A DNA stretch of 37,312 nucleotides from positions 1 to 37,312 of the forward strand of contig DATILO010000105.1 of the NCBI GenBank assembly GCA_035476335.1, given 5' to 3'. Positions 1,506 to 36,774 of this stretch are shown one piece after another. The position numbers and the translations under genes were made by a program. A model generated the notes under the pieces. The model did no database searches. It worked only from the letters and a program-made list of their open reading frames with translations, and was not told the origin of the DNA. This stretch comes from Candidatus Binatia bacterium (GTDB taxonomy: Archaea; Nanobdellota; Nanobdellia; Woesearchaeales; ARS49). The first letter of the stretch is position 1; each line of letters starts with the position of its first letter.

Positions 1506-1528
1506 GATGCCTTTCTTCGTGGAGAAGT

Positions 1529-14273: not shown

Positions 14274-14275
14274 AA

Positions 14276-14350: not shown

Positions 14351-14372
14351 ACCTGCTCTTTGTCCGACAGAG

Positions 14373-17952: not shown

Positions 17953-19771
17953 CCCCTTCGGCAAATACCGGCTCGAGCGCGAGCTCGGCAAAGGCGCAAC
18001 GAAGACCGTCTGGGAAGCGTTTGACACCGTCCAGGAACGCAAGGTCGCGCTCAAGGTCTACGCTCCTGAAAACCTCCAAACCTCACCCAATGCCCTGTTC
18101 TATCCTCCCGATATGCAGTCCATTGAGCATGGCGAAGCAGTGGCGCAAACGCGGGCAGGACATCATCCCCACATCGCCACCATCTACGATGCAGGCCAGC
18201 GCGACGGATGGTTCTTCATCGTCGAGGAACTCATCGAAGGCAGGACGCTCGCGGACGTCGTCGCGGGACTCCCTCAACGTCGATTGCGCGCGTACGCGCG
18301 GGACATCTGCAGCGGGCTGCGGCATCTCCACCGGCGAGGCATCGTGCACGGCGACCTCAAGCTCGAAAACATCATCGTCGATGCTGCCGGTGCGCACATC
18401 ACGGATTTCGGCGCGGCCATGCTTCCCGCACGCCCGCCTGCAAGCCAAGGTTCCCTGCGCTATCGCGCACCAGAAATCATTGCAGGACAGAAGCTGACGC
18501 CTGCGAGCGATATGTGGCAGCTCGGCGTGCTCCTCTACCGCGCGGTCGCGGGAGCATTCCCCTTCAACACATCCGTCAGCGACTGGAGCGGTGCAACACC
18601 TGAACAGTTGCGGCACTATCGAGAAGAGCTCAAGCACGCCATCATGAACCAGCCGTTCACGCCGCTCAAAGGCGGCAACACGAACCTACGCGACGTCATC
18701 CACTCCTGCCTCCAGCAAGACCCGTCTCGACGCATGACGCCGCAGCAGGCCGCCTTGCGCCTCGGTCCCTTCGGCTGGTGGAAAGAACTGGCAATCGCAA
18801 GTGCGCTGAGCGTCGTTCTGGTGCCCGGCGTCTGGCTCGGGATGCGCCAGTATGCAGAAAAGACCGCCGACCCCGCGGACATCATCTTTACCGCATCGGA
18901 GCACGGTGCCGCATCACTCTACCGCGCAAACGCGAGCCTGCGCCCGGCAGAATCGCTCTCGGAAGGAGCATCCTTCGGGCTTACCGCGCACCCCTCGGGC
19001 AACGCATTCAGCTACGTCCGTGCATCCGTATCGGAACAGCAGCTACGGTTCCACACCGCTACGGACGAACGCGTGCTCTACACGGCAAAGCGCATCACGC
19101 AGCAGGCATGGTCTCCTGACGGCACCAAGCTTGCGGCGCTCGTGGAGACGGCAGACGATTACCTGCTCGTCATTCTCGGCAAGGATGGAACGCTCCTCAG
19201 CCAAGAGCGGGGACGCTATGAAAAAGACCTTGCCTGGCATCCGAGCGGCACCTATCTGACGGCACTTGCGAATAACGCGCTCTTTTGCCTCCAGCCCGGC
19301 CATTCACGCCGGGCAACCGAGTACCCTTCCGATATTATGACGTGCGCGTGGACGAGCCGCGGGCTCCTCGCCTATCGCCCTGACCCGGAACGCCCGCCCG
19401 GATTCATCGTGCGGTACGTGGGAAAGCAAGACGCCCCCGACAGGCACGAGCTCACGCTTATCTGGAACGAAACGTGGGGCAAGGCAAAGAAAATCGGCGA
19501 GCTGCGCGACAAGAGCGGCTACTGGTTCCTCAACGATGAACGGCTCACGGTCGAGCGCTGGGCAGACGCGCTCAATGCAACAATCATCAATGTTCCTGGA
19601 ACGGCGCTTGCGGCAGCGGAGGGGAAAAATGCAGAGGACTGGTTCATTGTTGCAAAACGCGACGGGCTTCCGGAATTATTGCACGCGCAGGTTGCGGGCG
19701 AACGGGTGCGCTGGACGCCGTATCTCGGAGCACGCGCGTTGGAAGAACTCATTTACCTCTCCAAACGCTAA
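17930..19771 (+). CDS. receptor-type Hanks Ser/Thr protein kinase: cytoplasmic kinase domain, one TM helix, TolB/WD40-like ectodomain
   Basis: Kinase motifs GKGATKTV, VALK, HGDLKLENIIVD, DFG and RYRAPE. TM helix LAIASALSVVLVPGVWLGM. The C-terminal half has repeated WSPDGTKLA / WHPSGTYLTA propeller-like motifs. Confidence 0.8.
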   Translation: MCTMDLPNPFGKYRLERELGKGATKTVWEAFDTVQERKVALKVYAPENLQTSPNALFYPPDMQSIEHGEAVAQTRAGHHPHIATIYDAGQRDGWFFIVEELIEGRTLADVVAGLPQRRLRAYARDICSGLRHLHRRGIVHGDLKLENIIVDAAGAHITDFGAAMLPARPPASQGSLRYRAPEIIAGQKLTPASDMWQLGVLLYRAVAGAFPFNTSVSDWSGATPEQLRHYREELKHAIMNQPFTPLKGGNTNLRDVIHSCLQQDPSRRMTPQQAALRLGPFGWWKELAIASALSVVLVPGVWLGMRQYAEKTADPADIIFTASEHGAASLYRANASLRPAESLSEGASFGLTAHPSGNAFSYVRASVSEQQLRFHTATDERVLYTAKRITQQAWSPDGTKLAALVETADDYLLVILGKDGTLLSQERGRYEKDLAWHPSGTYLTALANNALFCLQPGHSRRATEYPSDIMTCAWTSRGLLAYRPDPERPPGFIVRYVGKQDAPDRHELTLIWNETWGKAKKIGELRDKSGYWFLNDERLTVERWADALNATIINVPGTALAAAEGKNAEDWFIVAKRDGLPELLHAQVAGERVRWTPYLGARALEELIYLSKR

Positions 19772-20451
19772 CTGCACAGCTGCAGCGTCACCTGCAACGG
19801 CAACCCTGCAGTCGGCACAGGATTAGTTGACGCCTCAATCTCTCCGGAACAGTCCCCGCTCTCGAAATGGATGTCCTTGACCTTATCGGTTCCTGTGACC
19901 GAGAACGTGTAACTGCGCTTCCACGCACCCAGCGTTCCCGTGAGCATCTGCTCGAACGCATCGTGCACCGTTTCGCACGACGTTCTCCCGCCGCAATCAA
20001 TGCGCGAGAAAATCGCACAGTCCTGGAGGAGTTCAGTGACCGTTGCGTCGCGACAAGCCGAAGTGGTGCCAAGCATCGCAGTCACCATGCTCGAAGCGAG
20101 CTGCGACTCCTTGAACTGCCGCTCCGTCTGGGATGCGGGCGCGCGGAGCACGAAGAGAATCGCGAAGAGCACGCCGAGCATGATGAGCACGACGATGATG
20201 GCGAGTCCGAGGATTTCCATTTGTGCTCTTTTCTTCGGGGAGAGCGCCGCCTGTTGGCCAGCGAACGGAAGGCCGGGCGAAAGCTCCGGTGTTGATCGAC
20301 GCGTACGAACGACAAAACTGCCGGGGAACGGAGGAGCAGGGGACGCGGCGACCCTTGGCCGCAGCCAAGCTCCGAGCACCGAAGGTGCGAGGTTGGTGAG
20401 CGAGGCGCTCTCCCGGCGCGGCGAACGCGCGAACGTCCGAGCGTTACGCAA
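19768..20451 (-). CDS. type IV pilin-like protein A (class III signal motif KKRAQ then MEILGLAIIVVLIML)
   Basis: This is the last gene of the surface operon. The ORF opens at TTG 20451, overlapping the stop of gene B. The only in-frame ATG is at 20220, just after the KKRAQ motif, and an in-frame GTG lies at codon 25. Codons 13-71 are occupied by repeat copy 1, so the start is uncertain. Confidence 0.5.
   Translation of the reverse strand: MRNARTFARSPRRESASLTNLAPSVLGAWLRPRVAASPAPPFPGSFVVRTRRSTPELSPGLPFAGQQAALSPKKRAQMEILGLAIIVVLIMLGVLFAILFVLRAPASQTERQFKESQLASSMVTAMLGTTSACRDATVTELLQDCAIFSRIDCGGRTSCETVHDAFEQMLTGTLGAWKRSYTFSVTGTDKVKDIHFESGDCSGEIEASTNPVPTAGLPLQVTLQLCS
20238..20414 (-). repeat. structured repeat, copy 1 (177 nt)
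   Basis: Terminal helix GGGAGAGCGCC (20238-20248) / GGCGCTCTCCC (20404-20414). The core at 20296-20351 is 56/56 identical to the reverse complement of 22503-22558. Internal hairpins CTTGGC-CGCA-GCCAAG and GCACC-GAA-GGTGC. Confidence 0.75.
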
Positions 20452-20920
20452 AGACCGTCACCTCGAGATAGCCAAAAGCGTAGTGATTCGTTTCCGGCAG
20501 ATAGAGCAGCACGGGAATCTGCGCAACGCGTGACTCCTGCCGGTTCGGGTCTTCCTTGTCATAGATGACCACCTCATCGGCATCAGGGTATATCTTGTGC
20601 ACGGATACCTTTGCATACTCAAACGTCTTGAAGTAATCCACTTGCACATTCTCGTTCGTGAGCAGTTCCGCGAACTTTCTTGCCTTGAGTTCATCGACGC
20701 AGTTCTCTCGCTGGACGCCGATGCGCGAGCACTCAAGTTCGGGCAGCGTGAGCGATTTCTGCGCAATCTGAATGACCTTGAGCTGCGCATTCTCCTCCAT
20801 CTGGCGCTTCACCGAGGACTCCTGAAGCTTGAAGTAGAAGCTCGCGCCGAAGATGAGGAAAAAGAAAAATACTACGAGTACCGCGAGCGATTCAAACATC
20901 TTGACTTGTGCGCGTTTCAT
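20444..20920 (-). CDS. type IV pilin-like protein B (MKRAQ then VKMFESLAVLVVFFFF)
   Basis: The ATG at 20920 overlaps the stop of gene C (ATGA). A class III-like N-terminus is followed by a roughly 125-aa extracellular part with 2 Cys. Confidence 0.6.
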   Translation of the reverse strand: MKRAQVKMFESLAVLVVFFFFLIFGASFYFKLQESSVKRQMEENAQLKVIQIAQKSLTLPELECSRIGVQRENCVDELKARKFAELLTNENVQVDYFKTFEYAKVSVHKIYPDADEVVIYDKEDPNRQESRVAQIPVLLYLPETNHYAFGYLEVTVFA

Positions 20921-21951
20921 CAGTAAATCGTCGGGCAGCTCTGCCTGAGGAGTGCCTCGTTTTCTCCTGCGATGGATTGTGCGGCAACCGTAAGCGAGCC
21001 CAAGTCCGCGAGCGCGTCGACCTGTGCGGCCGCGCCTGAGCGCAGGACTTCCAGGTTCGTCGTGCTGTAGCCGCACCGGAGCAAATCGCCGTTGGCCTGA
21101 AGCACAATCGCGCGGTTCTCCATCACCTGCGCGACGTAGGACAGGCGCTTCACGGCCTCCTGCATGTTGCAGCGGTACATATTGTCATCATAGGCAAAAA
21201 TGGTGGCGAACAGCCCCGCATCGCCGATGTAGCTCAGCGCGCCCGACTGCTCACAGTCGCCGGTGCGCTGCGGATAGCACTTGAAGAACGTCGCCTGGCT
21301 GCCGGACAGGTGCACGCCGGTGATGTCCGTGTCCTTGAACGACTCGTGGAACGTCGTGACGCTCGGCGTTGTTTCGAGGAAGACAAACTTCACCTGCTGG
21401 TAGTTCTCGTTCTTCACGCAACCCGCATCGGAACTGCAAATTTGGGAGGGCTCGATGAACTCCGCGTTGATTTTGTCGGGAAGCTCCTGCTGCAGTTGCG
21501 CCTTGAGTTGGAGCGACGGCGTGCTGGAGTCAGAGACAAAAAAATACTTGATGCGGTCGTTGGTGACGTACAGGAAGTTTCCCGCACGGAAGGGCACGTT
21601 CCACGGCAGCGTCCAGAACACGATGTCCTTGCCCTCAATGTGATTCGGGGAAAAGATGATTTTGTCGCGATAGTCGCGGCTCAGCGAGCCGACCCGAAAC
21701 GCGCATGCGCATTCATCGCTGCACCCGAAGTCGATGCCCGTGCGCGGCAAATCAATGCGTTGTGCGCTTCCTTTGGACGATGCCGCACCCGTCGTGATGG
21801 CATCCAGCTCGTTGATGAGCGCGAGGGAAAGCTTCTCCTCGCTGACACTCCGCTGCTTTTGGATAATGCTGAAGAAGAACGCGAGTATCACCGCGCCCGC
21901 GATGATGATGAAAATCCAGTTGAACTGGACTTCAAGCATGCCGCGCTTCAT
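20920..21951 (-). CDS. type IV pilin-like protein C (MKRG then MLEVQFNWIFIIIAGAVILAFFF)
   Basis: The ATG at 21951 overlaps the stop of gene D (ATGA), with an alternative ATG at 21963. The extracellular domain is about 310 aa and Cys-containing. Confidence 0.6.
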   Translation of the reverse strand: MKRGMLEVQFNWIFIIIAGAVILAFFFSIIQKQRSVSEEKLSLALINELDAITTGAASSKGSAQRIDLPRTGIDFGCSDECACAFRVGSLSRDYRDKIIFSPNHIEGKDIVFWTLPWNVPFRAGNFLYVTNDRIKYFFVSDSSTPSLQLKAQLQQELPDKINAEFIEPSQICSSDAGCVKNENYQQVKFVFLETTPSVTTFHESFKDTDITGVHLSGSQATFFKCYPQRTGDCEQSGALSYIGDAGLFATIFAYDDNMYRCNMQEAVKRLSYVAQVMENRAIVLQANGDLLRCGYSTTNLEVLRSGAAAQVDALADLGSLTVAAQSIAGENEALLRQSCPTIY

Positions 21952-22616
21952 TGCGCGAGCCATGGACTCACCAACGCCCGGTCGCCTTTGCCTTCGAGGC
22001 GGAGCGTGACCTTTCCTTCGAGAATCTTCGTACAGAACGCACCGTTCGCGGCCTCGACGTGGTCAAGAAGAATCGGCGTCTCGGCAAGCGGGATGAGGAA
22101 GACGTTCTGCGCATTGCCCTGCGCCGACTCGAAAACGAGCGGATGTTCGGTTTGGAACGTACCGAGGGCGGGATTATCCTTGCGACAGTCGGCCGCCTTC
22201 GCGTCCATGCCTGGACTGCAGAGCACGCAGAGTTCCTGGTAGCGCGTGGGGAGCGTCAGGTCAAGCTTCTTGACGCTTCCATAGTCGAGACTCACCCCTT
22301 TCACGGCATTGCGGAATTCGGTCTCGAAATTGACGAACGCGACTTGCTCGGAGCGCTGCGTGAATTGGCTGATGGCTTTGTAGCCGTAAAGCAGGATGAG
22401 GATGAAAATCGCGGCTGCGAGAATTAAGATGAATACCTGGCCGATGATTTGGGCACGTTTCTGGAGAGCACGCGACTCGCTGAAGGCTGCCCCGCGCCCG
22501 TCTCGCCGCGTCCCCTGCTCCTCCGTTCCCCGGCAGTTTTGTCGTTCGTACGCGTCGACCTTATGCGGGACCATCTCCGGCCTTGACGTGCGCTCTTCAT
22601 GGCAGCCATCAGCCAT
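21948..22616 (-). CDS. type IV pilin-like protein D (QKRAQ then IIGQVFILILAAAIFILILLYGY) with a 52-aa pre-motif leader
   Basis: The ATG at 22616 overlaps the stop of the giant gene (TAATG). No ATG/GTG/TTG exists between the repeat and the KRAQ motif, so the leader, largely encoded by repeat copy 2, must be translated if the motif is used. Confidence 0.55.
   Translation of the reverse strand: MADGCHEERTSRPEMVPHKVDAYERQNCRGTEEQGTRRDGRGAAFSESRALQKRAQIIGQVFILILAAAIFILILLYGYKAISQFTQRSEQVAFVNFETEFRNAVKGVSLDYGSVKKLDLTLPTRYQELCVLCSPGMDAKAADCRKDNPALGTFQTEHPLVFESAQGNAQNVFLIPLAETPILLDHVEAANGAFCTKILEGKVTLRLEGKGDRALVSPWLAQ
22462..22599 (+). repeat. structured repeat, copy 2 (138 nt), inverted relative to copy 1
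   Basis: Terminal helix TGGAGAGC (22462-22469) / GCTCTTCA (22592-22599), which includes one G-T pair. Identical core at 22503-22558. Confidence 0.75.
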
Positions 22617-25600
22617 TATCTCCTCCTCTTCCGCTTTTCCCCACGCACGAACGCTTCGAGCTCCGCTTCCAGCTCTGCCTTGTGCGTTGCGTAGTACGCT
22701 GCGGTGATGCGGAGCTTGCGGAAGAGCTCTTCCATCTCCTCCTTCGTGAGCTTGCCTCTTCTGAGGAGCCGGAGCTTGAGGAGCAATTCCTTGCGCTCCT
22801 TTGGTGAGAGTCCTGCGAGCGCGAGTTCGCGGAGCCGGTCGAGCGGGGTTTCCTCGCGCTCGAGCTGCTTGAGGAGCTTCGGGTGCTCGCGTTCCGCGAG
22901 TTCGCCCTTGATGAACGCATCGAGCTTGCCGAACGTCTTTGCGCTCACGTCTTCGGGACCGAGCTTCTTGAGGTCCGCGACCGAGAGCCAGTCCTCAAGA
23001 TGAGGTGTTTCTGGCTGCTTCTTCTCAGGTGCCGGAGGTAAGGGCGGCGCTTCAGGCGCAAGGAACGGAATGCTCTTGCGGAACTGCCGCAGGCGGCGCT
23101 TCACTTCCTCGGGTTTCTTGCGATAGTAGAGATAGCCGAGCACGATAAGCAGCAGGAGCAACAGGAGGAGCAGCCACCAGAGCCATCCGAGACCGCTGCC
23201 GTCGGAAACCAAGGGGTTCTTGCCCAGGCGGAATTCTTCGAGATTCGTCAAGCCATCGCCGTCGGGGTCTGCATCGGCTGCGGCATCGCCCTCGCAGATG
23301 ACATCGCCGAAGAAGAGGATTCTCCACGAGTCCGGAATCTCGTCGCCGCACGAGTGGCGCTGGCTTGCGCTGCAGCCGTACTCGTCAACGACTTCTCCGG
23401 ATGGCGTTCCGGGACACTTGTCAAGCGCGTCAGGCACGCCGTCGCCGTCCTCATCGGCAATGGCTGCGCAGACGCCGTTCACGCACGAGGTGCCGTTGAT
23501 GCAGTCCGCGCTGACCGTGCAGCTCTGTCCGACACCGCACTTTTGGGAACAGGCGCCGCCGCAGTCAATGTCGCTCTCGAGACCGTCAAGCTTGCCGTTC
23601 TTGCACGGATTGTCCGAGCAGATGCCCGCATCACAGTAGTTGCTCATGCAGTCTTCATTGATCGCGCACGTCTTGTTATTCGCGCATTGCGGACACTGGT
23701 TGCCGCCGCAGTCAATGTCGGTCTCGTTGCCGCCGTTGATTTTGTCCGTGCAGAGCGAGGGCTGGCAAATCTTGCTTGCGTTGCAGATGCGCGACATGCA
23801 ATCTGAGTTGATGGCGCACTTCTTGTAATCGGCGCACTGGGGGCAGATTGCGCCGCAGTCGACATCGGTCTCATTACCCACGTCAAAGAGCTGGTTGAGG
23901 CATTGCGGCGGAATCTTGCTGAAATCGATGATGACGCCGTCGCTCGGGAGCTCGGTGCTCAGGAGCGATGCCTTGTTTTCGGCCTTGACGCGGAAGTAGT
24001 AGCTCGTGCCGTTCGTGAGATTCAATCCCGTGACCCACCAGGGCAGTCCGTCGAGAATGACGCTCGGCGTCCAGTTCTTGAGCACGACACTGGTCGCCTT
24101 TTCCTGGACAAGATAGTGATAGCGCGAGACATTGCTCTCATTGTCCGTGCCGTTCATCGCGATGCGGAGCTGATTCTTGAAGTACGAGTACTGCGGCCAC
24201 TCAGGGTTGTTGCTCGTGTCGTCTGCATAGAGCATGTCCGGCGGAGTCGTATCAACGTAGAACGTGACATTGATAGTCTTCTGCTCGATGCCTGCTGCGG
24301 ACGTGCCCGAACCGGTCGCGCACGTGACCGGGATGGAGTACGGTCCGGGTCCCGGGACCGTGATGAGCGTCGTGTGCGCCATCGCAGCCGTATCCGTGCT
24401 GCCGATGGGCAGGAGCGCGCCGTCCTGCTCATAATAGCAGAACGTGTCCTTGTTCGTTTCGACACCGAGAGGAACGGTGACATTGCCGACAAACGGCGGG
24501 ACAATGCTCTTGACGGTGAGGCTCAAGTTGAGGTTCACGCTGAACGTCACGGAAGCACTTGCGGGACCCAGCCCTGCGAGATTCTTGCAGGCAATCTTAT
24601 AGGTGTAGGACGCGGGCGCGGGAACCGTCACGTTGACCGCGTGGCCCTGCAGGCCGAGAATGCCGAACATCGGGAATACGCCTTCCATGAGGTCATAGTT
24701 GTTCGTAGTGTTGCTGTACTTACAGAAGGTGAGGTCATCCGTCTGCACTTTCAGCGTCGTCTGCAGCGGCATCTGGACAATCGGGTTGGGAATCGCGAAG
24801 GCCGTGACAATCTTGGGCGGGCTCGTGTCCACGGTAAGATAGAATGTGCTGCTTCCCGTGCCCGTGACCGGGTCGACGCAGCGCACATACACTTTATAGG
24901 GTGTGTTCTCCTTGGTGATTTCGTTAAACACGTTCTTCAGATGCACGAAGTCATTCGTGCTGTCAAAGGGCTGGAGCGCGGTGAACAAGCCGGGCGGCGG
25001 AACGGTCTGGCTGCTCCAGTAACGGCATTCCGCGACGCTGTCTGTCTCGACCGCGAACGGGAACGAGAACGTGCTGCTCACTCCGTACGGCGGGAGCTTG
25101 AGCGTGACGATGGGAGGGGCTGCGTTCACGACGAAGAGACTGCTGTTCGTCGCAGGCGAGAGCGGGTTACCTGCGTAGTCGGTGACGATGGGGCGGATGA
25201 TTTTCTTGCCCTCCGTCAGCGTGAGCGTCGCGGTGTACGTGCGATTGTCGTTGCCCTTTGCAAAGAGCCCGGTAATATCATGAATTTCCGGCACGCTGAT
25301 GGGTCCCGCGCTCGTGTTATAGATGACGTATTCAATGAGGGTGAAGTTCTGGACAATCACCGGCTCGCTGAAGTTGACCTTGAGTGTGGTCGAGCCCGTG
25401 CTCAGCACCGCGCTGTCGGTCGGCGTGTAGTTTGCAATCGGCGGCGTCGTGTCAACGACGGCAGGTACGCTCACCGGGGCGTCCATGTAGACGTTGTTCG
25501 TGTCACGTGCATTGGCGGAGAAAATATACTTCCCTTCGGCAAGCGATGTTCCCGACGGCACGGTGAGCGTGTACGCACCATTGAATCCTGACGCGGGCGA

Positions 25601-27667
25601 CTTGTCAAGTTCCGTGACGTCCGTGCCCTGGACAAAGCCCGCAAACGTCTGATCCGCGGGTTCGTTGTAGGAAATAATGGTCACGGGCGTGTGCGAGTTA
25701 GTATAGTAGGTTCCGTTGACCTTCCTTCCGGGCGTGATGTTGAGCGTGAGCATCTTGGGACCCTGGCACGCGGTGCAGGCGAAGACGTTGAAGGTCTTGA
25801 TGACTTCCAGGTTTTTGTTCGGGTCCTTGGAATAGTAGCGGAGCGTGTTCCAGCCGGGGCTCATGGTCAGGAGCGTCGTGTTGCCCTGCTTGAGCTCGAG
25901 GTCGTTGAAGTTGAGCTGGGTGAAATTCGTCGCGACAAAATTCGTGCACGGCGTTCCGCCTTGCGCGCCTGCGCAAAAGAACACGCCCCAGTTCACGTAT
26001 TCGGGAATCTTGGAATCACACTGCTTGACGCAGAACTGGAGCTGCTGCGACGGCTGGACGAGATGCCCGAACTCCGTTGCGTTGCTCCGCTCCCAGAGCC
26101 GGACATCGAGATAGTCGTACTTGCCCGCGCTGCCCGTCGGGATGAGTGTCGTGAGCGCGGGGAAATAGTCGCGTTCGCAGACCGGGTCGTTCACGCCGCA
26201 GTCCGGCCAGTACGACGTGAGCGGAGTCGCGTCGGCATTCTTGTGACAACCGGGATTATTGTTGAGCGGCACGCTGGAATCGTATTGGCACACCTTGATG
26301 CCGCACGGGTCGGTGCTCGGGTTCGCGATGCTGTTGTCCGGATTGAGCTGGATTGCGCCCTGCGGAGAACTGCACTGCCCCGGGGTATAGTCCTTGCAGG
26401 TGACGGTGCTGCAGTCAGAAGCTTGCCCATTCGTATAGAAGCACTGATGCTCAGGTGTGCTCAGCGCGATTGCCTTCTGGGGCGTGCACTGGTCGAAAAC
26501 ATTGTTGTAGGAATTGTACGTGGGCGCGCCTGCCGTGCCTTGCTTGTCGCACCAGGCGCAGTTGTTGAAGCGCTTGTCAACGCAGACTCCTGAACCGACG
26601 TCCGAGAACGTGTCCACCCACTCGCAGGCGCCGAGACCGCAGTTGTTGCGCTCGCACGCGCCCTTGCTCTTGTAGTCATAGCAGTTGAGCCCTTGGTTGC
26701 AAATGTAGCATGTATCCACGCTCGTCTGGCTCCGATCCAGGAAGCAGTAGTTTTCGTTGCCAGCCGTTCCTTCGCACTGGTCAACCGTGGCACCGAGCCC
26801 GAAAATACCCTCGTTGGGGTCGCACGGACCGGGTGAGCGGCATGATGGCGTGAGCCCTTGCGCGACGCAGATGGTGCCCGCATCACAAGGAAGGATGATG
26901 CTCAGCTTGTTGTCGACATCGCACGCGGCAGCCTTGTTGAACTTCGTGAAGAAGACCGCGCTTACGGCGCTGTCGAAGTTCACGAATGCAGATGCGGCTG
27001 TTGCAGGATCGCCTGCGTAGCCATACGTCTGCAGGTACGTCTTGAATGAATTATAATACGCGCTGGAAATGCAGAAGCTCTCGAGACCGTACTGGTTCTC
27101 GCATTCCAGGTCGCCCGTATTCACGCTCTTTGTCGCCGGCGGACTGTCGCCCTGGATGCTGTACTTCGCGATGACCTTGTAGGTGTACGCCGTATTCCAG
27201 CGCAGCTCAGGACTGCCGTCGATGAAACTCGATGCGGGCCCGATGATGGCGACCTGCTGGAAGTTCGAGCAGCTCGTGCCCGTGCACCGGCTGATGACAT
27301 ACGCGTCCGCAACGCAGACCTGGTTCCAGGAGAGCTTGATGGCGCGCTTGCCTTTCACGGGAACAACGCTCAGGTTGCCAGGAGCAGGATTGAATGACGC
27401 GGAACCGCATGCGCCTGTCGTTACATTAGGAATCGCGGTGACTTCTCCGCATTTCGTACTGCAGCTCTTATTGAGCGCGATGTCGGTCGCGGTGGGAGCA
27501 ACAAAGTCCGGGTATTCCGGCAGGCATTCGGAGGAAGGCAGATACGAATCGACCTGTGCGGTGGCCGCCTCCAGGTTGCAGCAGCAGCCCGAATCGGCCG
27601 TCACGGCAATCGCGGCAAGCGCGAACGCCAGCAGTACAATGAGTCCTATTCGCGGGAATGGTTTCAT
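22616..27667 (-). CDS. giant (1683 aa) secreted, C-terminally membrane-anchored Cys-rich surface protein
   Basis: Sec-type signal MKPFPRIGLIVLLAFALAAIAVTA. A long Cys-rich N-terminal region is followed by several Ig-like modules bounded by VDT(T/S)PP. Then come three Cys-rich modules (nt 23468-23911), D-x-D-G-D-G TSP3-like repeats (23195-23467), TM GLGWLWWLLLLLLLLLIVLGYLYY (23123-23194) and a 168-aa K/E/L/R-rich tail (22619-23122). There are many N-x-S/T sequons. Confidence 0.85.
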   Translation of the reverse strand: MKPFPRIGLIVLLAFALAAIAVTADSGCCCNLEAATAQVDSYLPSSECLPEYPDFVAPTATDIALNKSCSTKCGEVTAIPNVTTGACGSASFNPAPGNLSVVPVKGKRAIKLSWNQVCVADAYVISRCTGTSCSNFQQVAIIGPASSFIDGSPELRWNTAYTYKVIAKYSIQGDSPPATKSVNTGDLECENQYGLESFCISSAYYNSFKTYLQTYGYAGDPATAASAFVNFDSAVSAVFFTKFNKAAACDVDNKLSIILPCDAGTICVAQGLTPSCRSPGPCDPNEGIFGLGATVDQCEGTAGNENYCFLDRSQTSVDTCYICNQGLNCYDYKSKGACERNNCGLGACEWVDTFSDVGSGVCVDKRFNNCAWCDKQGTAGAPTYNSYNNVFDQCTPQKAIALSTPEHQCFYTNGQASDCSTVTCKDYTPGQCSSPQGAIQLNPDNSIANPSTDPCGIKVCQYDSSVPLNNNPGCHKNADATPLTSYWPDCGVNDPVCERDYFPALTTLIPTGSAGKYDYLDVRLWERSNATEFGHLVQPSQQLQFCVKQCDSKIPEYVNWGVFFCAGAQGGTPCTNFVATNFTQLNFNDLELKQGNTTLLTMSPGWNTLRYYSKDPNKNLEVIKTFNVFACTACQGPKMLTLNITPGRKVNGTYYTNSHTPVTIISYNEPADQTFAGFVQGTDVTELDKSPASGFNGAYTLTVPSGTSLAEGKYIFSANARDTNNVYMDAPVSVPAVVDTTPPIANYTPTDSAVLSTGSTTLKVNFSEPVIVQNFTLIEYVIYNTSAGPISVPEIHDITGLFAKGNDNRTYTATLTLTEGKKIIRPIVTDYAGNPLSPATNSSLFVVNAAPPIVTLKLPPYGVSSTFSFPFAVETDSVAECRYWSSQTVPPPGLFTALQPFDSTNDFVHLKNVFNEITKENTPYKVYVRCVDPVTGTGSSTFYLTVDTSPPKIVTAFAIPNPIVQMPLQTTLKVQTDDLTFCKYSNTTNNYDLMEGVFPMFGILGLQGHAVNVTVPAPASYTYKIACKNLAGLGPASASVTFSVNLNLSLTVKSIVPPFVGNVTVPLGVETNKDTFCYYEQDGALLPIGSTDTAAMAHTTLITVPGPGPYSIPVTCATGSGTSAAGIEQKTINVTFYVDTTPPDMLYADDTSNNPEWPQYSYFKNQLRIAMNGTDNESNVSRYHYLVQEKATSVVLKNWTPSVILDGLPWWVTGLNLTNGTSYYFRVKAENKASLLSTELPSDGVIIDFSKIPPQCLNQLFDVGNETDVDCGAICPQCADYKKCAINSDCMSRICNASKICQPSLCTDKINGGNETDIDCGGNQCPQCANNKTCAINEDCMSNYCDAGICSDNPCKNGKLDGLESDIDCGGACSQKCGVGQSCTVSADCINGTSCVNGVCAAIADEDGDGVPDALDKCPGTPSGEVVDEYGCSASQRHSCGDEIPDSWRILFFGDVICEGDAAADADPDGDGLTNLEEFRLGKNPLVSDGSGLGWLWWLLLLLLLLLIVLGYLYYRKKPEEVKRRLRQFRKSIPFLAPEAPPLPPAPEKKQPETPHLEDWLSVADLKKLGPEDVSAKTFGKLDAFIKGELAEREHPKLLKQLEREETPLDRLRELALAGLSPKERKELLLKLRLLRRGKLTKEEMEELFRKLRITAAYYATHKAELEAELEAFVRGEKRKRRR

Positions 27668-28965
27668 GAACTGGTTCCTGCAGGGATGCGGAACGTCAAA
27701 CGGTCCGTCAAATCGGGATCAGTGAATTGGGAGTCGGAGGCCTCGACGACGATTTGCACCTCGCGATAACTGCTCGCATCTTCGTACGTGACCGTGTAGC
27801 TTGGTTGCAGCGGATTCTGCTGCCCGCCTGCGAACGCGCGGAACGTCACGGCATCCTCATCGGGGTCGTACGCGCGCACTTCGACATTGAATCCGGTGAA
27901 TGAGCCGACGCAGTTCGACACGTCGCCCGACAGGTGCGTGCCGTCGAAGGAGATGACGCTGCCGTCGCAAAGCTTCCACGTCGCGATGGTGTCATTGGGA
28001 ATCCACACGAGCGCGGGAGCACGGTTCTTGCGCGCAACTTGGAAAACATATTGGACGCCTCCGAGACTGGACGCAGGGTCAATAAATTGCAGGAGATCGT
28101 CGTGCAGGTATGCGTCATGCGAGGTCGAGACCTGCACCTGGTCAAGCACGAGCGATGTGGGGTCGAACGACAGGTTGGTGACCTCCTTATCCATGACGTA
28201 ATGCGCAAGCTCGTGAATCGCCTTCATCCGCACCGGAAGCTCCGTCGCAAAGGAATCAACGTGCGTCTTGGTTCCGGAAACCTCGCTCGTGAGATTTGCC
28301 GGATAATAGAGCAGGAACGATGTTCCGCGCGTTCCGAACACCACCTGCAGGGAAGGCGTCCCGGTCTCGACGGAGAGTCCTTGCTTCTCAAACACGCTCC
28401 AATCGATGCAAGACTGCGTTTTGGCCAGGACCGCGGCTTCAAGTTCCTCCTGGAGCGAGTTCGTTCCTTCCAGTTGCAGCAGCTGATTTCTGCCGAAATA
28501 GCCTTGGAGATATTCCGGAATGAGCACGTCGTACGTACCGAGCGCGTTGGGCGTGTCGTTGTAGAGCATCGGGAACGTGGGCCAGGGATAGTCAGGAGTC
28601 TTTGCGAAGAAAAGCGTGCCGACGTTTCCTTCCGGCGGCAAGATGGCATAGGTCACCTTCGTGGTGCCGTCGAGCACGTAGTCCGTGCCGAGCACGAGCG
28701 GGTCGGGAGTGATGCCGCCCTGGCTCGTGTAGACGTGGCCTCCTTGCTTGCCGAGGATTTCAATGATGGAGCGTGCTGACAGGTCCAGGCACTGCGTCAC
28801 GTACTCTTGGACCGGCTTCAGGAGCGCGGCCGTCCGTTGCTGGGTTTCCACGCGTTCTTCCCCTCTTTTGCTGCTCGCGGAGCGTGCCGCGTACAAAACG
28901 ATGCCCACGATGATGAGCACCAACAAAACAACAATGATGATGAGCGTCAGCTGGCCACGGCGCAT
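27664..28965 (-). CDS. type IV pilin-like protein E (MRRGQ then LTLIIIVVLLVLIIVGIVLYA), 433 aa
   Basis: The ATG at 28965 lies 1 nt after the stop of the 1352-aa gene, and the stop overlaps the ATG of the giant gene (ATGA at 27664-27667). Confidence 0.6.
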   Translation of the reverse strand: MRRGQLTLIIIVVLLVLIIVGIVLYAARSASSKRGEERVETQQRTAALLKPVQEYVTQCLDLSARSIIEILGKQGGHVYTSQGGITPDPLVLGTDYVLDGTTKVTYAILPPEGNVGTLFFAKTPDYPWPTFPMLYNDTPNALGTYDVLIPEYLQGYFGRNQLLQLEGTNSLQEELEAAVLAKTQSCIDWSVFEKQGLSVETGTPSLQVVFGTRGTSFLLYYPANLTSEVSGTKTHVDSFATELPVRMKAIHELAHYVMDKEVTNLSFDPTSLVLDQVQVSTSHDAYLHDDLLQFIDPASSLGGVQYVFQVARKNRAPALVWIPNDTIATWKLCDGSVISFDGTHLSGDVSNCVGSFTGFNVEVRAYDPDEDAVTFRAFAGGQQNPLQPSYTVTYEDASSYREVQIVVEASDSQFTDPDLTDRLTFRIPAGTSS

Positions 28966-28966
28966 G

Positions 28967-31900
28967 TTACCCTGGCCGGAGTTTTGCCGTGAGGTCTCGC
29001 CACGCATTCGCGATGGGCGGGGTGGCAGTCTGGTAGACGTCCGTCACGATGCGCATTTCACCCGTGCTGTTCGTGCACGCGGCCTTGCCATCATATTTCT
29101 GGATGAGGTTGAAACAGGGATTGGGTCCGAGGTCGACGTTCGCGTAGCGCACGCCGATGTAATCCTTCGGCGGCAGCGCGGTGGAGAACTTGATGCCGGT
29201 CTCGTAGAACGCGAACAGCATATGGTCATCCGCGCGCGCGGCATAGAGCTTGTTGAACGTGTGCGTGTTGTCAAAGAAGGAAAAGTCATTGCCCACACCC
29301 GGATTGTTGAGCATGGCGGACACGAATTGTTTGAGCGCATTGAGCGGGTCCGCGATGAACTGGTCGAACCACTCGCTCACGGATGTTCCGCCGAGCGTGC
29401 CGGAGGGGATGGAAATGAGACTGTTCGTCTGCGGATTATACCAGAGTCCTGGTGCGCCGGAACACTCAGTGTACCCTGTTCCCGAGAGCGCGTTATCGCA
29501 CGCCGTTGCCGCCTTGTTGACGCCCGTCGGGTTCGTCAGGAAGCTCTTGGCTGCATCATCGACCGGGTTGTTCAGACTGACTCCCCACGCGACTCCGTTC
29601 GGCGTTTCGAGCACGCAGAAGTTGTTCACACAGGGAACGCCCGTGCCGAGGATGGAACAGCTGGAGTCGCCGACATAATTTGCGACGCTCTGCGGAACGT
29701 TCAACGCCTTATCCGATTTGTCGCAGAAGAGCCGGTACGCGGTCGGCGATGTGGAGTCAATGTAGTCAAAGAGTTGGAGTGCAATATTTTTCGTGCGCGT
29801 GCTCCAAATGCCGTTTTCACACGCGTGGTCCTTGATATACTGGCCGTCGGCAATACATTGAGGATAGAACACGCCAGGTGTGGTGTCAAAGTACTTGTCG
29901 GGCTGGTCGTTGTTGATTCCTGTACCTGCCGTCGTGATGAGGCACTGGTCTTCGCGCGGGCAGTAGCCCTTGACTCCCCGGTCCCAGCTGTAGCGGAGCG
30001 TTCGGAGAATCCAGTTGCCGCCCTCGCAGCGGTAGCCCGAGTCCGTCGAGCCGAACGGATACTGGTAGCCCCCTGCTGCACCGAGTTGATCGTTCTGGCA
30101 GCCCTGGTGCACGCCCGAGCCTTGGAGGTTGGAATCGCCGGTCCAGCAGCTGGTCGTGTTGCAGCATTCCTCAAGGAGCGTTCCCGCGGGAGCAGTCCAC
30201 GCGATGTTCTTGAGCTCGGTGCGGTTGGTCGGCGGCGAGTCAACCTTCCATTTGCCGGTGCTCGAGCAGAAGTATTCGCCGCTCGCGCTTGAGCCAGGGA
30301 TGACGTCGCACGCTTCATGAGACGTGGGCGCAGCGGAACTCGGGGAGCTTCCTGAGCTCTGCAGACTGCAGAGGTCGTCCGCACTCAATGCCTGCACGTC
30401 GGCGTCGCTGAGCGCGTGGTCATAGATTTGCACCTCGTCCAGTGCTCCGCGGAAATTTCCCGACGGGATGACATAGCCGCCGATGTACAATGGTTGGCTG
30501 TTCTGCAAGCTTCCGCTGGCAAGCGTTGTTTGGGTTTTCACCAACACCCCGTCAATGTACAGTTTGAGCTGCTTTCCTTGGCGTTCTGCCGCAACGTGGT
30601 GCCACTGGTCTTGCCAGAATGAAGGACCGTAATTAGTGGAATCATTTTCTGTGATGGTGGCGGTGGTTCCCTGAGAAATGAGGTAAAAGCTCAACGCGCC
30701 TTGCATGTAATACAACTCGTAGCCGGAAGGTTGGCTGACGAGATAAACGCTGGGTGATATCTTATAGACAATGACGTAACCTCCATCGTACGACGAGTCA
30801 GCGACGGGCTTCATCCAGGCGCTGATGGTGAAATCATCGCCGGAGCCGAAGTCGAGGTTCGGGTTGTCGCTGATGTTCACCGAGGAACTGGTGCTCAGGG
30901 AAAACGCCTGTCCGGTATGGCCTGCGGAGTAACTCGCGACGCCGTTGAATTTGCCATCGTTGCCATCGACGCTGTCTTGAACGTTTCCTTCTGCCTTCCA
31001 CCAACTCACGAGACCGTCGGGCGTGCAGGATTGTGCGGGAGCGGCGCTCACGGCTGCGTTGCAGCCCTGCAATGTTCCATTGAACGCGAGAATAGTTCCG
31101 TCCTCGACGGTGTTGCCGTTCGCGACGAACGTGCTGTCCCAGCACACGCCGATATCGCCGGGAGCCTCATACGTCTCATGCGCGTCGTCTGCCTCGGAAC
31201 AGCATCGTTTCGCAAGCCACGCGAAGCCCGCCTTGGTGCAGGATTCCTCGTCCTTGGAATCAAGGTCTTTCGTGTAGATTCCGTCTGATGCACAGTAATA
31301 CGTTCCGCCCGGCGTGAGAAGCGTCGTGCCCGTCGGCATGCTGTTGAGCATGCTGAGGCCGCCGTGCGAGCCCGCGCATTCCGTCGCGTTACGCTTGGTG
31401 CGATTGCAGGAGTAATAGTGAGGCAGATCAGAGATGTTGTTGATCCACGCGAGCGGGCGAGCGTCAAGCGTCGCGATATCGGTGGTGCTGCCACCGCATT
31501 CGTAGAATCCGCTGCCGTTGCTCACAACCGTGATGTCCGGACAGCCCGTGTCGACGGGCCGCAGGTCGGCAATATCGCCGGGAAGGTAATTGCTTGCCCA
31601 CTTCCACTTACCGTCGGCAGTCTTGCCGCAGATGCCGACATCCTGGAGGTAGGTGCCGCAGCTTGCGGTATCCATGCCGGTTGCGGCTGCACCGCAGCAC
31701 GTGCCGCCGTGGCCGTTCGGCCCGCCATAGGCAATCCAGTCGCCGCCTTGGTCAAGGCACGGCTTTGCCTGGATGAAGTCACAGGTTTTTTCCTTGTCCG
31801 CGTCGATGCAGGCGTACGCGTTGGCGGTGTCGGTTGATTGCGCAGTTATTTCCGTGTAGTCCGTGCTGCCGCCGAGCCACGTCATCACGTCGGAAGCCGT

Positions 31901-33025
31901 GTCACCGATGGTGACGGGGTACGCTGATTCCCAGTCACACTTGCCATCGTAGGTATTATCGGTGCAGGTGTAGAGATGATTATTGAGATTCGTCGTCTGC
32001 TGCACGCCATCTTGCGGCGTCGTGGTGGGCGTGTTCGCCGCGTCAAACCAGAGAAGCGTTGCGGCATTTCGATAGGAATTGTCAACCTTGAGCTGGGGGC
32101 TGCCGCTGAGGCCCGGGAGCAAGGAGGTCAGCGAACCCAAATCAACGGACTTGTCCCCCTCTGAGATGATTTTTCCGCTTCCCTGAGCTTTCGTGCCTGC
32201 AATGTCCCAGAAGGTCGCCGTAATGGTTCCCTTATTGATACCGGAATAGACCGCGCCACATTCGACAAACGTGATTTGATTGGCAGCGATGGGCGGGTCG
32301 AAGTTGACAAGCGGAGGGTACGTGTTATCACATCCCGAATCATAGACCGTTTGGCCGTTGTTCGTCACGAGTGCCTGCGTGGGTCCAAGATTGTTGTAGA
32401 AGCCATCGGTTGCCGTGAGCGATAATGACGAGAGGTAGTGTGTTCCACCCAGTCCCAGCCCGACCTTCATCTTACTCGATGAAGAGGTGGTGCTCGAACT
32501 GGTGTTCGTCTTCGTCACGGTTCCGTTGAAGATGCGCCAGTACGCCTCGCGGTTGCGCTGCAGCAACGGCTTCATCACGCCGAGCTGCTTTGCCTGGTCG
32601 TTGAGCCAGACGCCGGAGCTATTGTGCGTAATATCCGCGCCCACATACCAGAGCCCCCAGCTTTGGCCGTTCGGGTCGCGCCCGCAGACACGCACCTCAT
32701 CAGCCATGCCTGAGAAATGCTTCGTGGGCACCAAGACGCTGTCGCCATATCCCCACTCCTGGTCTTCCTGCTGGACAACGCCGTCAATGAGCAATTGAAT
32801 TCCGGTGGCAACCCACAAGCCGTGTTTGCCTGCATGCCAGTTCAGCGCATAGGCATCGAAAACGTACACTGGTGAAGGAACGGAAAAGACCGTTTGGTAC
32901 GCCCAACAGTAGTTGTAGGTGTAGCCGTTCGTTTTGCCGAAGATACTCCAGTCAAAGTTGGCTCCCTGAGCCACGGACGCGAGAAATACTATAGTAAGTA
33001 CTGTTAACAGACCTCTTTTTACCAT
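28967..33025 (-). CDS. giant (1352 aa) secreted Cys-rich protein with a central LamG/concanavalin-A-like domain
   Basis: Sec-type signal MVKRGLLTVLTIVFLASVAQGA. LamG_3-like segment (nt about 30386-31020): LVSWWKAEGN...FTISAWMKP...WHHVAAERQGKQLKLYIDG...PLYIGG...FRGALDEVQIYDHALS. No C-terminal TM helix was seen. Confidence 0.85.
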   Translation of the reverse strand: MVKRGLLTVLTIVFLASVAQGANFDWSIFGKTNGYTYNYCWAYQTVFSVPSPVYVFDAYALNWHAGKHGLWVATGIQLLIDGVVQQEDQEWGYGDSVLVPTKHFSGMADEVRVCGRDPNGQSWGLWYVGADITHNSSGVWLNDQAKQLGVMKPLLQRNREAYWRIFNGTVTKTNTSSSTTSSSSKMKVGLGLGGTHYLSSLSLTATDGFYNNLGPTQALVTNNGQTVYDSGCDNTYPPLVNFDPPIAANQITFVECGAVYSGINKGTITATFWDIAGTKAQGSGKIISEGDKSVDLGSLTSLLPGLSGSPQLKVDNSYRNAATLLWFDAANTPTTTPQDGVQQTTNLNNHLYTCTDNTYDGKCDWESAYPVTIGDTASDVMTWLGGSTDYTEITAQSTDTANAYACIDADKEKTCDFIQAKPCLDQGGDWIAYGGPNGHGGTCCGAAATGMDTASCGTYLQDVGICGKTADGKWKWASNYLPGDIADLRPVDTGCPDITVVSNGSGFYECGGSTTDIATLDARPLAWINNISDLPHYYSCNRTKRNATECAGSHGGLSMLNSMPTGTTLLTPGGTYYCASDGIYTKDLDSKDEESCTKAGFAWLAKRCCSEADDAHETYEAPGDIGVCWDSTFVANGNTVEDGTILAFNGTLQGCNAAVSAAPAQSCTPDGLVSWWKAEGNVQDSVDGNDGKFNGVASYSAGHTGQAFSLSTSSSVNISDNPNLDFGSGDDFTISAWMKPVADSSYDGGYVIVYKISPSVYLVSQPSGYELYYMQGALSFYLISQGTTATITENDSTNYGPSFWQDQWHHVAAERQGKQLKLYIDGVLVKTQTTLASGSLQNSQPLYIGGYVIPSGNFRGALDEVQIYDHALSDADVQALSADDLCSLQSSGSSPSSAAPTSHEACDVIPGSSASGEYFCSSTGKWKVDSPPTNRTELKNIAWTAPAGTLLEECCNTTSCWTGDSNLQGSGVHQGCQNDQLGAAGGYQYPFGSTDSGYRCEGGNWILRTLRYSWDRGVKGYCPREDQCLITTAGTGINNDQPDKYFDTTPGVFYPQCIADGQYIKDHACENGIWSTRTKNIALQLFDYIDSTSPTAYRLFCDKSDKALNVPQSVANYVGDSSCSILGTGVPCVNNFCVLETPNGVAWGVSLNNPVDDAAKSFLTNPTGVNKAATACDNALSGTGYTECSGAPGLWYNPQTNSLISIPSGTLGGTSVSEWFDQFIADPLNALKQFVSAMLNNPGVGNDFSFFDNTHTFNKLYAARADDHMLFAFYETGIKFSTALPPKDYIGVRYANVDLGPNPCFNLIQKYDGKAACTNSTGEMRIVTDVYQTATPPIANAWRDLTAKLRPG

Positions 33026-33037
33026 GCTGGGCTGCGT

Positions 33038-33059
33038 CTATTAAAAAGGTTTATATATC
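33038..33059. promoter_or_regulatory. bidirectional A/T-rich TATA region (CTATTAAAAAGGTTTATATATC) for the surface operon and the divergent Cys-rich gene
   Basis: This is the only A/T block in the 55-bp gap. It lies about 27 nt from the ATG at 33081 (+) and 18-29 nt from the ATG at 33025 (-). Confidence 0.5.
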
Positions 33060-33080: not shown

Positions 33081-33629
33081 ATGGAAAAGAAGGTGATTAT
33101 CGAAGGAGCATCCCTTTTGCTCGTCATTCTCGCAGTTCTGGGCATCTGGTACTTCGCACGAATGCCTGCCTCAGAACCCGCATCGCAAGCCACGATTCCT
33201 ACCTTTGACGCATCGCTGGCAGCCAAGGGCTGTATCGATGAAGGCAAAGCCGTGGTTGACCTGCTCGCGGCAGTTGACGCGAAAGATGCCGCTCGCTGTC
33301 CTTCACTCTCACCGCACAACGCGTTTTGCAAGGCAGCGCTTGGTGTTGACGAATGCGCCGGACTCGCGCTCATGCAGGAACAAGCATCATGCGCAGCCAT
33401 TCTCGCAAAGAAACCCGCCTCCTGTGAAAAGGATGAATTGTGTCACATTCTCGCCGGAGACACCTCCTGCTCGACCGGCACGGACCACGACTTCTGCATG
33501 GCCGCCGTTGCGCGAGATAGCAACAAGCTTACGGACCCTGCTGCGTGCGAGCAGATTGCGCAGAACATGCAGCAACGCATTACCTGCACCAGCCAGGCAC
33601 AAAACGACGCCGAAGCTGCCGCCTGCTAG
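33081..33629 (+). CDS. small N-terminally anchored Cys-rich protein (182 aa)
   Basis: TM helix ASLLLVILAVLGIWYFA followed by about 150 aa with about 13 Cys at roughly 10-15-residue spacing. I recognise no family. Confidence 0.55.
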   Translation: MEKKVIIEGASLLLVILAVLGIWYFARMPASEPASQATIPTFDASLAAKGCIDEGKAVVDLLAAVDAKDAARCPSLSPHNAFCKAALGVDECAGLALMQEQASCAAILAKKPASCEKDELCHILAGDTSCSTGTDHDFCMAAVARDSNKLTDPAACEQIAQNMQQRITCTSQAQNDAEAAAC

Positions 33630-34238: not shown

Positions 34239-34256
34239 GTTTGTAGCGAGAAACGA

Positions 34257-36764: not shown

Positions 36765-36774
36765 GATAACTCGC

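Follow-up and report, generated by a model that had tools for sequence, protein, structure and literature searches.

A conserved Woesearchaeota operon encoding five candidate pilin-like proteins and two giant cysteine-rich exported proteins

How DPANN archaea recognise and hold their partner cells is a long-standing question, and for Woesearchaeota, a widespread DPANN group, we know of no cultured representative and no known attachment apparatus. A stretch of 37,312 nucleotides (nt) from contig DATILO010000105.1 (assembly GCA_035476335.1, positions 1 to 37,312 of the forward strand; hereafter, the window) offers a concrete candidate for such an apparatus: seven adjacent minus-strand genes (19768-33025), two of which encode giant Cys-rich proteins (G1 and G2) and five of which encode smaller proteins (A to E) with N-termini resembling those of type IV pilins. 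An earlier interpretation made without database searches (the sequence-only reading) had taken them for a coupled operon serving as a pilus-tip, pseudopilus or attachment module. What, then, does this locus encode? In the reading developed below, which we regard as an even call, A-E would be a minor-pilin-like set that, together with adhesins, belongs to a lineage-specific type IV-like surface structure, with cleavage and assembly presumed.

The seven-gene operon and its conservation

The seven open reading frames (ORFs), in the order G1-A-G2-B-C-D-E, were confirmed as follows (aa, amino acids):

28967-33025, minus strand: G1, 1352 aa
27664-28965, minus strand: A, 433 aa
22616-27667, minus strand: G2, 1683 aa
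21948-22616, minus strand: B, 222 aa (full ORF, ATG 22616)
20920-21951, minus strand: C, 343 aa
20444-20920, minus strand: D, 158 aa
19768-20451, minus strand: E, 227 aa (long ORF from TTG 20451)

Neighbouring genes are joined by overlaps or, at G1/A, by a 1-nt gap (TAA-C-ATG at 28963-28969, read directly). The overlaps are ATGA at 27664-27667 (A/G2), TAATG at 22614-22618 (G2/B), ATGA at 21948-21951 (B/C) and TGATG at 20918-20922 (C/D, 1 nt), and at D/E the TTG at 20451-20449 overlaps the D stop at 20446-20444. All ORFs and junctions of the coupled operon proposed in the sequence-only reading stand, apart from C/D, which had been given as ATGA. Codon-position GC shows the periodicity of coding sequence in all seven genes, in B and E within their conserved parts. 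The seven genes form one coupled operon.

A scan of a genome collection gave 27 related loci (the L-numbers below are labels of related loci compared with the window), and the window proteins were compared by BLAST with every stop-to-stop ORF in them. The order (RNase P p30)-G1-A-G2-B-C-D-E recurs in 18 complete and about ten contig-truncated loci at 25-65% identity, is found in at least 25 species-level genomes (distinct Woesearchaeota/Nanoarchaeia metagenome-assembled genomes, MAGs) and is shared by the GC-rich window and relatives of low GC; a further family (F, described below) led to three more loci with the same gene order. Median gaps, computed with starts at the Met nearest the N-terminal motif, are -4 nt for A-G2, -4 for G2-B, +1.5 for B-C, +1 for C-D and -6 for D-E. 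The outgroup locus L007 lacks B. None of the 30 homologues of gene A is annotated, and an exact-protein look-up of A with either start returned no record; the E family comprises 1767 clusters at 50% identity (E<=1e-3). The gene set is decisively co-conserved across loci, and the refuting condition named in the sequence-only reading, a gene set co-conserved in no relative, does not hold.

These results bear on the most sceptical explanation, namely that unrelated ORFs of a GC-rich contig, sharing basic residues and a hydrophobic start, have been lined up by chance or annotation. GC-rich sequence does yield many spurious ORFs, and the starts of B and E are doubtful (see below); nevertheless, all seven genes have same-order orthologues in high- and low-GC genomes, the E family alone is as large as stated, codon-position GC is periodic, and A and E give confident AlphaFold models. 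Synteny and conservation refute this explanation, and we attach practically no probability to it.

As to the source, NCBI labels the contig 'MAG TPA: Candidatus Binatia bacterium' (locus tags VLJ21_05235 to 05260), and its gene content is clearly archaeal and groups with Woesearchaeota: a Pfam scan of the window (GC ~58%) identified GatD/GatE, deoxyhypusine synthase, CDC48, RNase P p30 and TruD as archaeal markers, and every relative of gene A whose organism title is meaningful is a MAG of Candidatus Woesearchaeota or Nanoarchaeia. Several related TPA MAGs bear the title 'uncultured Methanosarcinales archaeon' or 'Acidiferrobacteraceae bacterium', and these are probably mislabels too.

N-terminal architecture of proteins A-E

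The five smaller proteins share a short basic leader followed by a hydrophobic helix, the only one that hydropathy indicates in each of them. With a slash marking the predicted cleavage site, the N-termini read MRRG/QLTLIIIVV in A, KRA/QIIGQVFILIL in B, MKRG/MLEVQFNWIFIIIAGAVIL in C, MKRA/QVKMFESLAVLVV in D and KKRA/QMEILGLAIIVV in E. Among orthologues, position -1 is G, A or S in 100% of sequences and position -2 is K or R in ~90% (RRG, KRA, KRG, KRA and KRA in the window), while Gln occupies +1 in 28/28 A, 20/20 D, 19/19 E and 19/22 B (86%) sequences and Phe, Met or Gln in the C family. Leaders are mostly 4-8 aa long, and the uncharged hydrophobic stretch, counted up to the first charged residue after position +8, covers 22-27 residues. 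A rule-based scan for this leader/helix pattern picked out 92 of 112 A-E family ORFs vs. 22 of 739 other ORFs (>=100 aa), most of the latter being further families of the extended locus described below.

The N-terminal helix is also the best-conserved block of each family: mean column identity over the first 25 mature residues is 0.46-0.67, vs. 0.34-0.38 for the rest, in all five families, with C showing the most conserved N-terminal 25 residues (0.67). Strong conservation of this kind is typical of pilin alpha1-N helices, not of plain membrane anchors, and therefore supports a pilin-like reading. The motif codons do differ among the five genes (CGC-CGT-GGC, AAA-CGT-GCC, AAG-CGC-GGC, AAA-CGC-GCA and AAA-AGA-GCA), as noted in the sequence-only reading, and the conservation of the helix bears out the selection at the protein level that it suggested. 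Descent of A-E from one another as paralogues was considered and rejected, since hhalign finds no similarity among the five families beyond the N-terminal helix, a trait that they have in common with minor pilin sets.

A comparison with experimentally defined sites is available for Epd pilins of Methanococcus maripaludis, which are processed by EppA at RAQI, KGQV, KGQL and KGQI; EppA requires Gln at +1, and FlaK rejects it (PMC4371748). The window sites RG/QL, RA/QI, RA/QV and RA/QM are the same as the EppA processing sites of EpdA-E, and this identity, together with the required +1 Gln, is the strongest argument for a class III signal over a plain signal anchor. At +5, A and E have L/F/I/M, B has Q, and most C and D sequences have F. 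Glu does not occur at this position; E carries it at +3, D at +6 and C at +2/+3, and A and B lack it. On the strength of these motifs, A-E are probably type IV pilin-like proteins with EppA-type class III signals, which a peptidase of that type would be expected to cleave.

This shared architecture, noted in the sequence-only reading, is conserved in every orthologue family; the description needs to be amended for B and E of the window, in which the KRAQ motif starts at residues 53 and 73 of the long ORFs, respectively. Relatives start B and E 4-6 codons before the cleavage site. The insertion-free references are L008 for B (ATG-AAA-CGC-GCC-CAA) and L035 for E (ATG-CGT-AGG-GGA-CAG-ATG, overlapping the D stop). 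The corresponding parts of the window are:

21948..22460, minus strand: conserved part of B, ~170 aa from the motif
22461..22613, minus strand: repeat insertion in B, 153 nt in frame (51 extra codons), between the ancestral ATG 22614-22616 and KRAQ
19768..20235, minus strand: conserved part of E, 155 aa with 6 Cys
20236..20444, minus strand: repeat insertion in E, 216 nt in frame (72 extra codons), between the ancestral TTG 20451 and KKRAQ
34254-34346 and 36769-36855: two more copies of the repeat, intergenic and more diverged

These four copies in 37 kb make up a family of GC-rich repeats (~90-180 nt) resembling miniature inverted-repeat transposable elements, with terminal inverted repeats of 10-13 nt. 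The B and E inserts have in common a 56-nt, 100%-identical core in opposite orientations; terminal inverted repeats are located at 20238-20248 and 20404-20414 in the E insert (GGGAGAGCGCC) and at 34257-34266 and 34377-34386 in the third copy. Codon-position GC of the E insert is flat (0.69/0.68/0.67), so that it looks non-coding. The repeat was not found in any related locus compared, and its 30-nt core gave 0 matches to JGI metagenome contigs; both inserts also occur in a second assembly (ENA ERZ27256872), which is 100% identical to the window over 18.3 kb. Long N-terminal extensions as conserved features of B and E were accordingly rejected in favour of a genome-specific repeat insertion, and the 'overlap' starts of these two genes in the window run through the inserted repeat. 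B has no alternative in-frame start and, if functional, would carry a ~52-residue leader; candidate starts of E are TTG 20451, a GTG (residue 25) and ATG 20220 (the NCBI call, 150 aa). Insertions tolerated exactly in the leader would be expected if leaders are cleaved off, which is suggestive rather than conclusive.

Structure prediction adds to this picture. The AlphaFold2 model of A, built from an alignment (mean predicted local distance difference test score, pLDDT, of 87), comprises a helix of 72 residues (2-73), an alpha/beta domain and a C-terminal domain of an immunoglobulin (Ig)/cadherin-like beta type with a DPDE motif invariant across the family. The model of E (pLDDT 85) has helices at 3-31, 35-56, 66-75 and 86-103 followed by four strands, a predicted lollipop topology compatible with a pilin. 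Searches of PDB sequences with the A, B, D, E and F families gave nothing significant; the top matches were T. thermophilus PilA for the E profile (E=1.1) and the archaeal 'flagellin-like' filament protein 8rey for the F-family profile (E=1.4), both non-significant.

The giant proteins, the extended locus and the proposed surface structure

The features of the two giants to which we refer are:

30392..30892, minus strand: LamG/concanavalin A-like lectin domain of G1, aa 712-878 (Pfam PF13385, PF02210)
28970..30013, minus strand: conserved C-terminal module of G1, aa ~1005-1352, delimited by comparison with relatives
23132..23200, minus strand: C-terminal transmembrane (TM) helix of G2, aa ~1490-1512, GWLWWLLLLLLLLLIVLGYLYY, from a hydropathy scan
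22619..23131, minus strand: K/E-rich cytoplasmic tail of G2, ~170 aa

G1 is secreted and rich in Cys: it has a Sec-type signal (MVKRGLLTVLTIVFLASVAQG/A), 44 Cys (3.3%) and 13 N-x-S/T sequons. Its LamG domain (PF13385, E=6.2e-27, 95 bits, cut-off 27.6; PF02210, E=4.8e-9, 37.2 bits, cut-off 22.9), also present in the G1 orthologue of L005, is the sole Pfam/NCBIfam match of all seven proteins at E<=0.01; a match to the NCBIfam fimbrial protein TafC is sub-threshold (52 bits, cut-off 410). G1 length varies in relatives from 866 to 1640 aa with conservation confined to the C-terminal module, and these ~350 aa are the only part common to distant relatives. In L005, L011, L012, L016 and L031, a gene of its own immediately upstream of A encodes the module, which there is ~365 aa long and has a Sec signal.

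G2 is a type I membrane protein in which a Sec signal is followed by an ectodomain rich in Cys and sequons (78 Cys or 4.6%, and 30 sequons, in the whole protein), a TM helix and a cytoplasmic tail. Its orthologues likewise have a Sec signal, one C-terminal TM helix (14/14 examined) and a K/E-rich tail of 115-191 aa. In some relatives, G2 is split into two or three ORFs (L007, 11292-18333; L024, 6571-12708). An assignment of G2 as an ordinary S-layer (surface layer) gene was rejected on account of its embedding between pilin-like genes by 4-nt overlaps. Searches of PDB sequences with G1 and G2 (phmmer/profile) gave nothing significant.

Both giants look like surface/adhesin proteins, in line with the sequence-only reading, of which the lectin domain of G1 and the C-terminal anchor of G2 are upheld; the Ig-like modules assigned to G2 are weakly supported, with faint TSP3/Big-type matches in its orthologues. 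The same applies to the proposed pilus-tip or attachment module: the surface/adhesin character of the giants fits attachment, but its type I membrane topology and cytoplasmic tail mean that G2 cannot simply ride on a pilus tip.

In many relatives, the window operon makes up the 5' part of a pilin-like locus that is much larger. Among those with readable DNA downstream of E, one to three tandem F genes of ~90 aa directly follow E in L013, L015, L017, L019-L025, L037, L038, L040 and the outgroup L007. F proteins have the form M-x-KK-[GAS]/QSISINTIIIAAIALAVLVVLFAIFTGR (N-terminal consensus also written KK[GAS]/QSISINTIIIAAI); a Cys-rich head of ~55 aa comes next and terminates in CCC. The +1 Gln is invariant in 18 aligned F sequences. 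The family has at least 2751 matches, named only from Woesearchaeota and Pacearchaeota. About nine more genes come after F, each with exactly one N-terminal helix, preceded in most of the N-termini read by a basic residue and G or S, and the extended locus ends at the gene of replication protein A (RPA). One conserved position encodes a pilin-type N-terminus (SKKG/IG plus a hydrophobic stretch) joined to interchangeable peptidoglycan-hydrolase domains. The coordinates in the relatives are:

L037, 10001-19284: extended locus
L038, 10001-18346: extended locus
L040, 10001-17869: extended locus
L038, 15459-16583: hydrolase-fusion position, Amidase_2 (E=1.6e-31)
L040, 15760-16863: hydrolase-fusion position, VanY/M15 (30.3 bits, cut-off 25)
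L037, 16238-17395: orthologous position

These domains are hints that the apparatus may act on bacterial cell walls. F and the other extended-locus proteins gave nothing significant against Pfam/NCBIfam pilin models. All extended-locus families are missing from the window, and in its clade a kinase gene follows E.

Thus placed, the seven genes would form the conserved 5' module of a locus for a surface structure confined to Woesearchaeota and, it seems, Pacearchaeota. In the mechanism that we propose, A-E would be inserted in the membrane via their class III signal peptides, and an EppA/PibD-type peptidase encoded elsewhere would cut them between [G/A] and Gln (Met/Phe in C); their conserved N-terminal helices would then pack like those of minor pilins into a short filament or a priming/tip complex, for which F, with one to three copies after E in many relatives, is a candidate shaft subunit. 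G1 would be secreted, with a variable lectin-bearing N-terminal part and the conserved C-terminal part as a docking module, G2 would present a giant membrane-anchored ectodomain backed by its cytoplasmic tail, and translational coupling would keep both in fixed proportion with the pilin-like set. The A-E set may in this way nucleate or cap a type IV-like structure and couple it to G1 and G2, which may give contact with a partner cell or surface.

The F genes also bear on a variant that differs from this mechanism mainly in filament length, namely a short pseudopilus- or bindosome-like stub in which cleaved A-E, like pseudopilins of the type II secretion system (T2SS) or the Sulfolobus Bas proteins, would hold, export or position G1 and the G2 ectodomain. 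It would explain why the window has five different pilin-like proteins but no obvious major subunit, and why the conserved module of G1 is always encoded next to A; furthermore, class III signal proteins are known from non-filament surface assemblies (PMC3047682). However, relatives encode tandem F proteins, typical small shaft-type subunits, right after E, and the locus offers no evidence for a dedicated secretion ATPase. We consider this variant rather improbable.

Several results weigh against a type IV-like surface structure built from A-E. The first group concerns the signals and folds: Ser at -1, common in distant relatives, is outside the classical G/A rule; the HMM (hidden Markov model) check of the five N-termini that the sequence-only reading had proposed came out negative, as curated pilin models (PF04021 Class_IIIsignal, PF07790 Pilin_N and TIGR-type models) match none of A-E at E<=0.01 and the 40-aa N-termini match none of these models even at E<=10. 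Foldseek searches of the PDB returned only weak cadherin matches for the A model (E~1e-2; these fit the invariant DPDE motif) and no pilin, and for the E model ribosomal uS3 as the best match (E~6e-3 to 1e-2), with no pilin among the 50 best. The charged, low-confidence stretch that follows the hydrophobic helix of A (residues 31-40, pLDDT 61) is unlike a canonical alpha1-C. Membership of A-E in a named pilin family is not established, and the pilin-like assignment draws on signal architecture and conservation pattern. The expression and processing of B and E with 51 and 72 extra codons are uncertain in this genome, and the membrane anchor of G2 is at odds with a classical tip adhesin.

The second group concerns assembly machinery, for which the searches cover 37 kb of this genome and +-10 kb of the relatives' clusters. 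The window ORFs covered by the Pfam scans include neither a T2SSE ATPase nor a T2SSF platform nor an A24 peptidase, in agreement with the sequence-only reading, and in the relative loci examined none of these three components turned up within +-10 kb of the cluster; motif scans of ~0.5 Mb of related loci found neither an A24 GxGD-K motif nor a T2SSE Walker A. The literature on DPANN type IV machinery is contradictory: DPANN genomes are stated in one preprint to lack type IV pilus (T4P) components (10.1101/2020.05.14.094862), whereas system 1 (Epd-like) of the type IV filaments (TFF) occurs in some DPANN, and archaeal TFF loci often carry large adhesin-like proteins, with stand-alone pilin loci also known (10.64898/2026.04.22.720090).

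The explanation that draws most on these negatives is that A-E are uncleaved N-in signal anchors whose helices assemble with the TM helix of G2 into a fixed envelope complex (a stalk or S-layer-like scaffold), with no peptidase step and no filament. One N-terminal TM helix after K/R in every protein fits the positive-inside rule, G2 itself is membrane-anchored with a cytoplasmic tail, and conservation of the TM helices could reflect intramembrane packing; the lack of TFF machinery nearby, of a pilin HMM or fold match and, by one published claim, of T4P components in DPANN all agree with it. Yet this explanation leaves unaccounted for the invariant Gln after a small residue in the non-homologous A, D and E (near-invariant in B, invariant in F) and the identity of the sites with EppA processing sites; in addition, the small tandem F proteins look like filament subunits, and in-frame repeat insertions upstream of the B and E motifs are easier to tolerate with a leader that is removed. 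A fixed envelope complex of signal anchors is, in our judgment, unlikely, though it is the chief rival.

Returning to the type IV-like structure, its widest form may tentatively be proposed, with reservations that exceed those attached to its parts: a host-contact organelle found lineage-wide in Woesearchaeota/Pacearchaeota, of ~20 genes, with products that nearly all have pilin-type N-termini, for which the window would supply the head and the relatives the 90-aa shaft pilins and hydrolase fusions. Such an organelle would be a counterpart of the bacterial minor-pilin/PilY1 priming complex, attaching to and breaching bacterial hosts, and would be assembled by distant machinery or by an unrecognised mechanism, because no ATPase, platform or peptidase is linked to the locus in the loci examined. 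Even without this widest form, the locus, if confirmed as an attachment apparatus, would define several new pilin families (that of E alone with >1,700 50%-identity clusters), show a minor-pilin-plus-adhesin architecture in Archaea and suggest that some of these archaea have bacterial hosts.

The surroundings of the operon in the window include the following features:

33050..33058, minus strand: TATA-like box ATATATAAA, ~29 nt upstream of the G1 ATG, read from the sequence
33081-33629, plus strand: divergent gene for a small membrane-anchored Cys-rich protein (182 aa, 14 Cys), with a palindromic TATA region in common with G1
17930-19771, plus strand: Ser/Thr protein kinase with one TM helix and a ~300-aa extracytoplasmic C-terminal domain, convergent on E
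17050-17952, plus strand: MazE/PhoU-like gene preceding the kinase
1528-1603, plus strand, and 14275-14351, minus strand: tRNA-Arg genes (anticodons CCG and CCT), from the Rfam/tRNA scan

The reverse complement of the TATA-like box, TTTATATA, precedes the divergent gene, which starts at 33081, by ~27 nt. This region is likely a bidirectional archaeal promoter that would yield leaderless or near-leaderless mRNAs, a role proposed because the known archaeal spacing from TATA box to transcription start site fits. The divergent gene occupies the interval from RNase P p30 to G1, which is empty in most relatives; a weak homologue occurs at the same position in L016 (E=4e-7). At the other end, the kinase and E overlap tail to tail by 4 nt at their stop codons. 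The kinase and the MazE/PhoU-like gene are linked to the cluster in the closest relatives only (L003, L005, L008, L009), and the kinase was therefore rejected as a system component; the pair is probably not core. No other Rfam family is above the gathering threshold in the window, and Rfam and tRNA scans gave nothing inside the operon.

Comparison with known systems

We found no published description of the cluster, consistent with the earlier impression that it cannot be placed in any described archaeal surface system. The nearest mention is 'Module 98', a set of 51 unknown Woesearchaeota/Pacearchaeota families described as lineage-specific and membrane/extracellular, in a study that also notes murein-degrading giant proteins in Woesearchaeota and Pacearchaeota (PMC8204110). 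Pilin-like proteins accompanied by adhesins are known; what is new here is the protein families, the lack of linked machinery and the unusual membrane-anchored giant.

Epd pili of M. maripaludis (system 1) resemble the window locus in the [K/R][G/A]/Q[I/L/V/M] processing motif with its obligatory +1 Gln, in several pilin-like proteins of very different sizes and adhesin-like proteins in the locus, and in pilin genes that can sit apart from the machinery, with system 1 being reported in some DPANN. They differ in that EppA, the EpdL ATPase and the EpdJ/K platform have no equivalents in or near the window locus, A-E have no similarity to DUF361/Class_IIIsignal models and lack the +5 Glu typical of EppA substrates, and two giant Cys-rich proteins are here interleaved with the pilin-like genes.

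The gene-set architecture also resembles that of bacterial operons of minor pilins plus a large adhesin (P. aeruginosa fimU-pilVWXY1E, T2SS GspH-I-J-K): four to five unrelated pilin-like proteins side by side, a large non-pilin Sec-secreted protein in the operon, and a major subunit encoded separately or next door; A, as an oversized pilin-like member without the conserved Glu, recalls GspK. The analogy is one of architecture only, as homology is not detectable: A-E, G1 and G2 have no Pfam/NCBIfam match to FimU, PilV/W/X, GspH-K or PilY1 (PF05567), and a PilY1 beta-propeller is absent. Furthermore, the leader and motif in the window are archaeal (+1 Gln, not Phe-Thr-Leu-Ile-Glu), and G2 is an integral membrane protein with a cytoplasmic tail.

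The Sulfolobus bindosome (Bas) likewise uses class III signal proteins, including small pilin-like helpers, in a surface assembly other than a classical pilus; however, Bas loci hold their own ATPase and platform (BasE/F), their substrates are solute-binding proteins, and nothing comparable is present here.

Finally, PilB/PilC of Streptococcus sanguinis are similar in associating a ConA/LamG-type lectin module with minor pilins, presumably for glycan/partner binding (PMC9934059, PMC8179133). The window lectin is carried by the separate, Sec-secreted G1 rather than grafted onto a pilin; the extended locus of the relatives, in contrast, does fuse a pilin-like N-terminus to an enzymatic module, either Amidase_2 or VanY.

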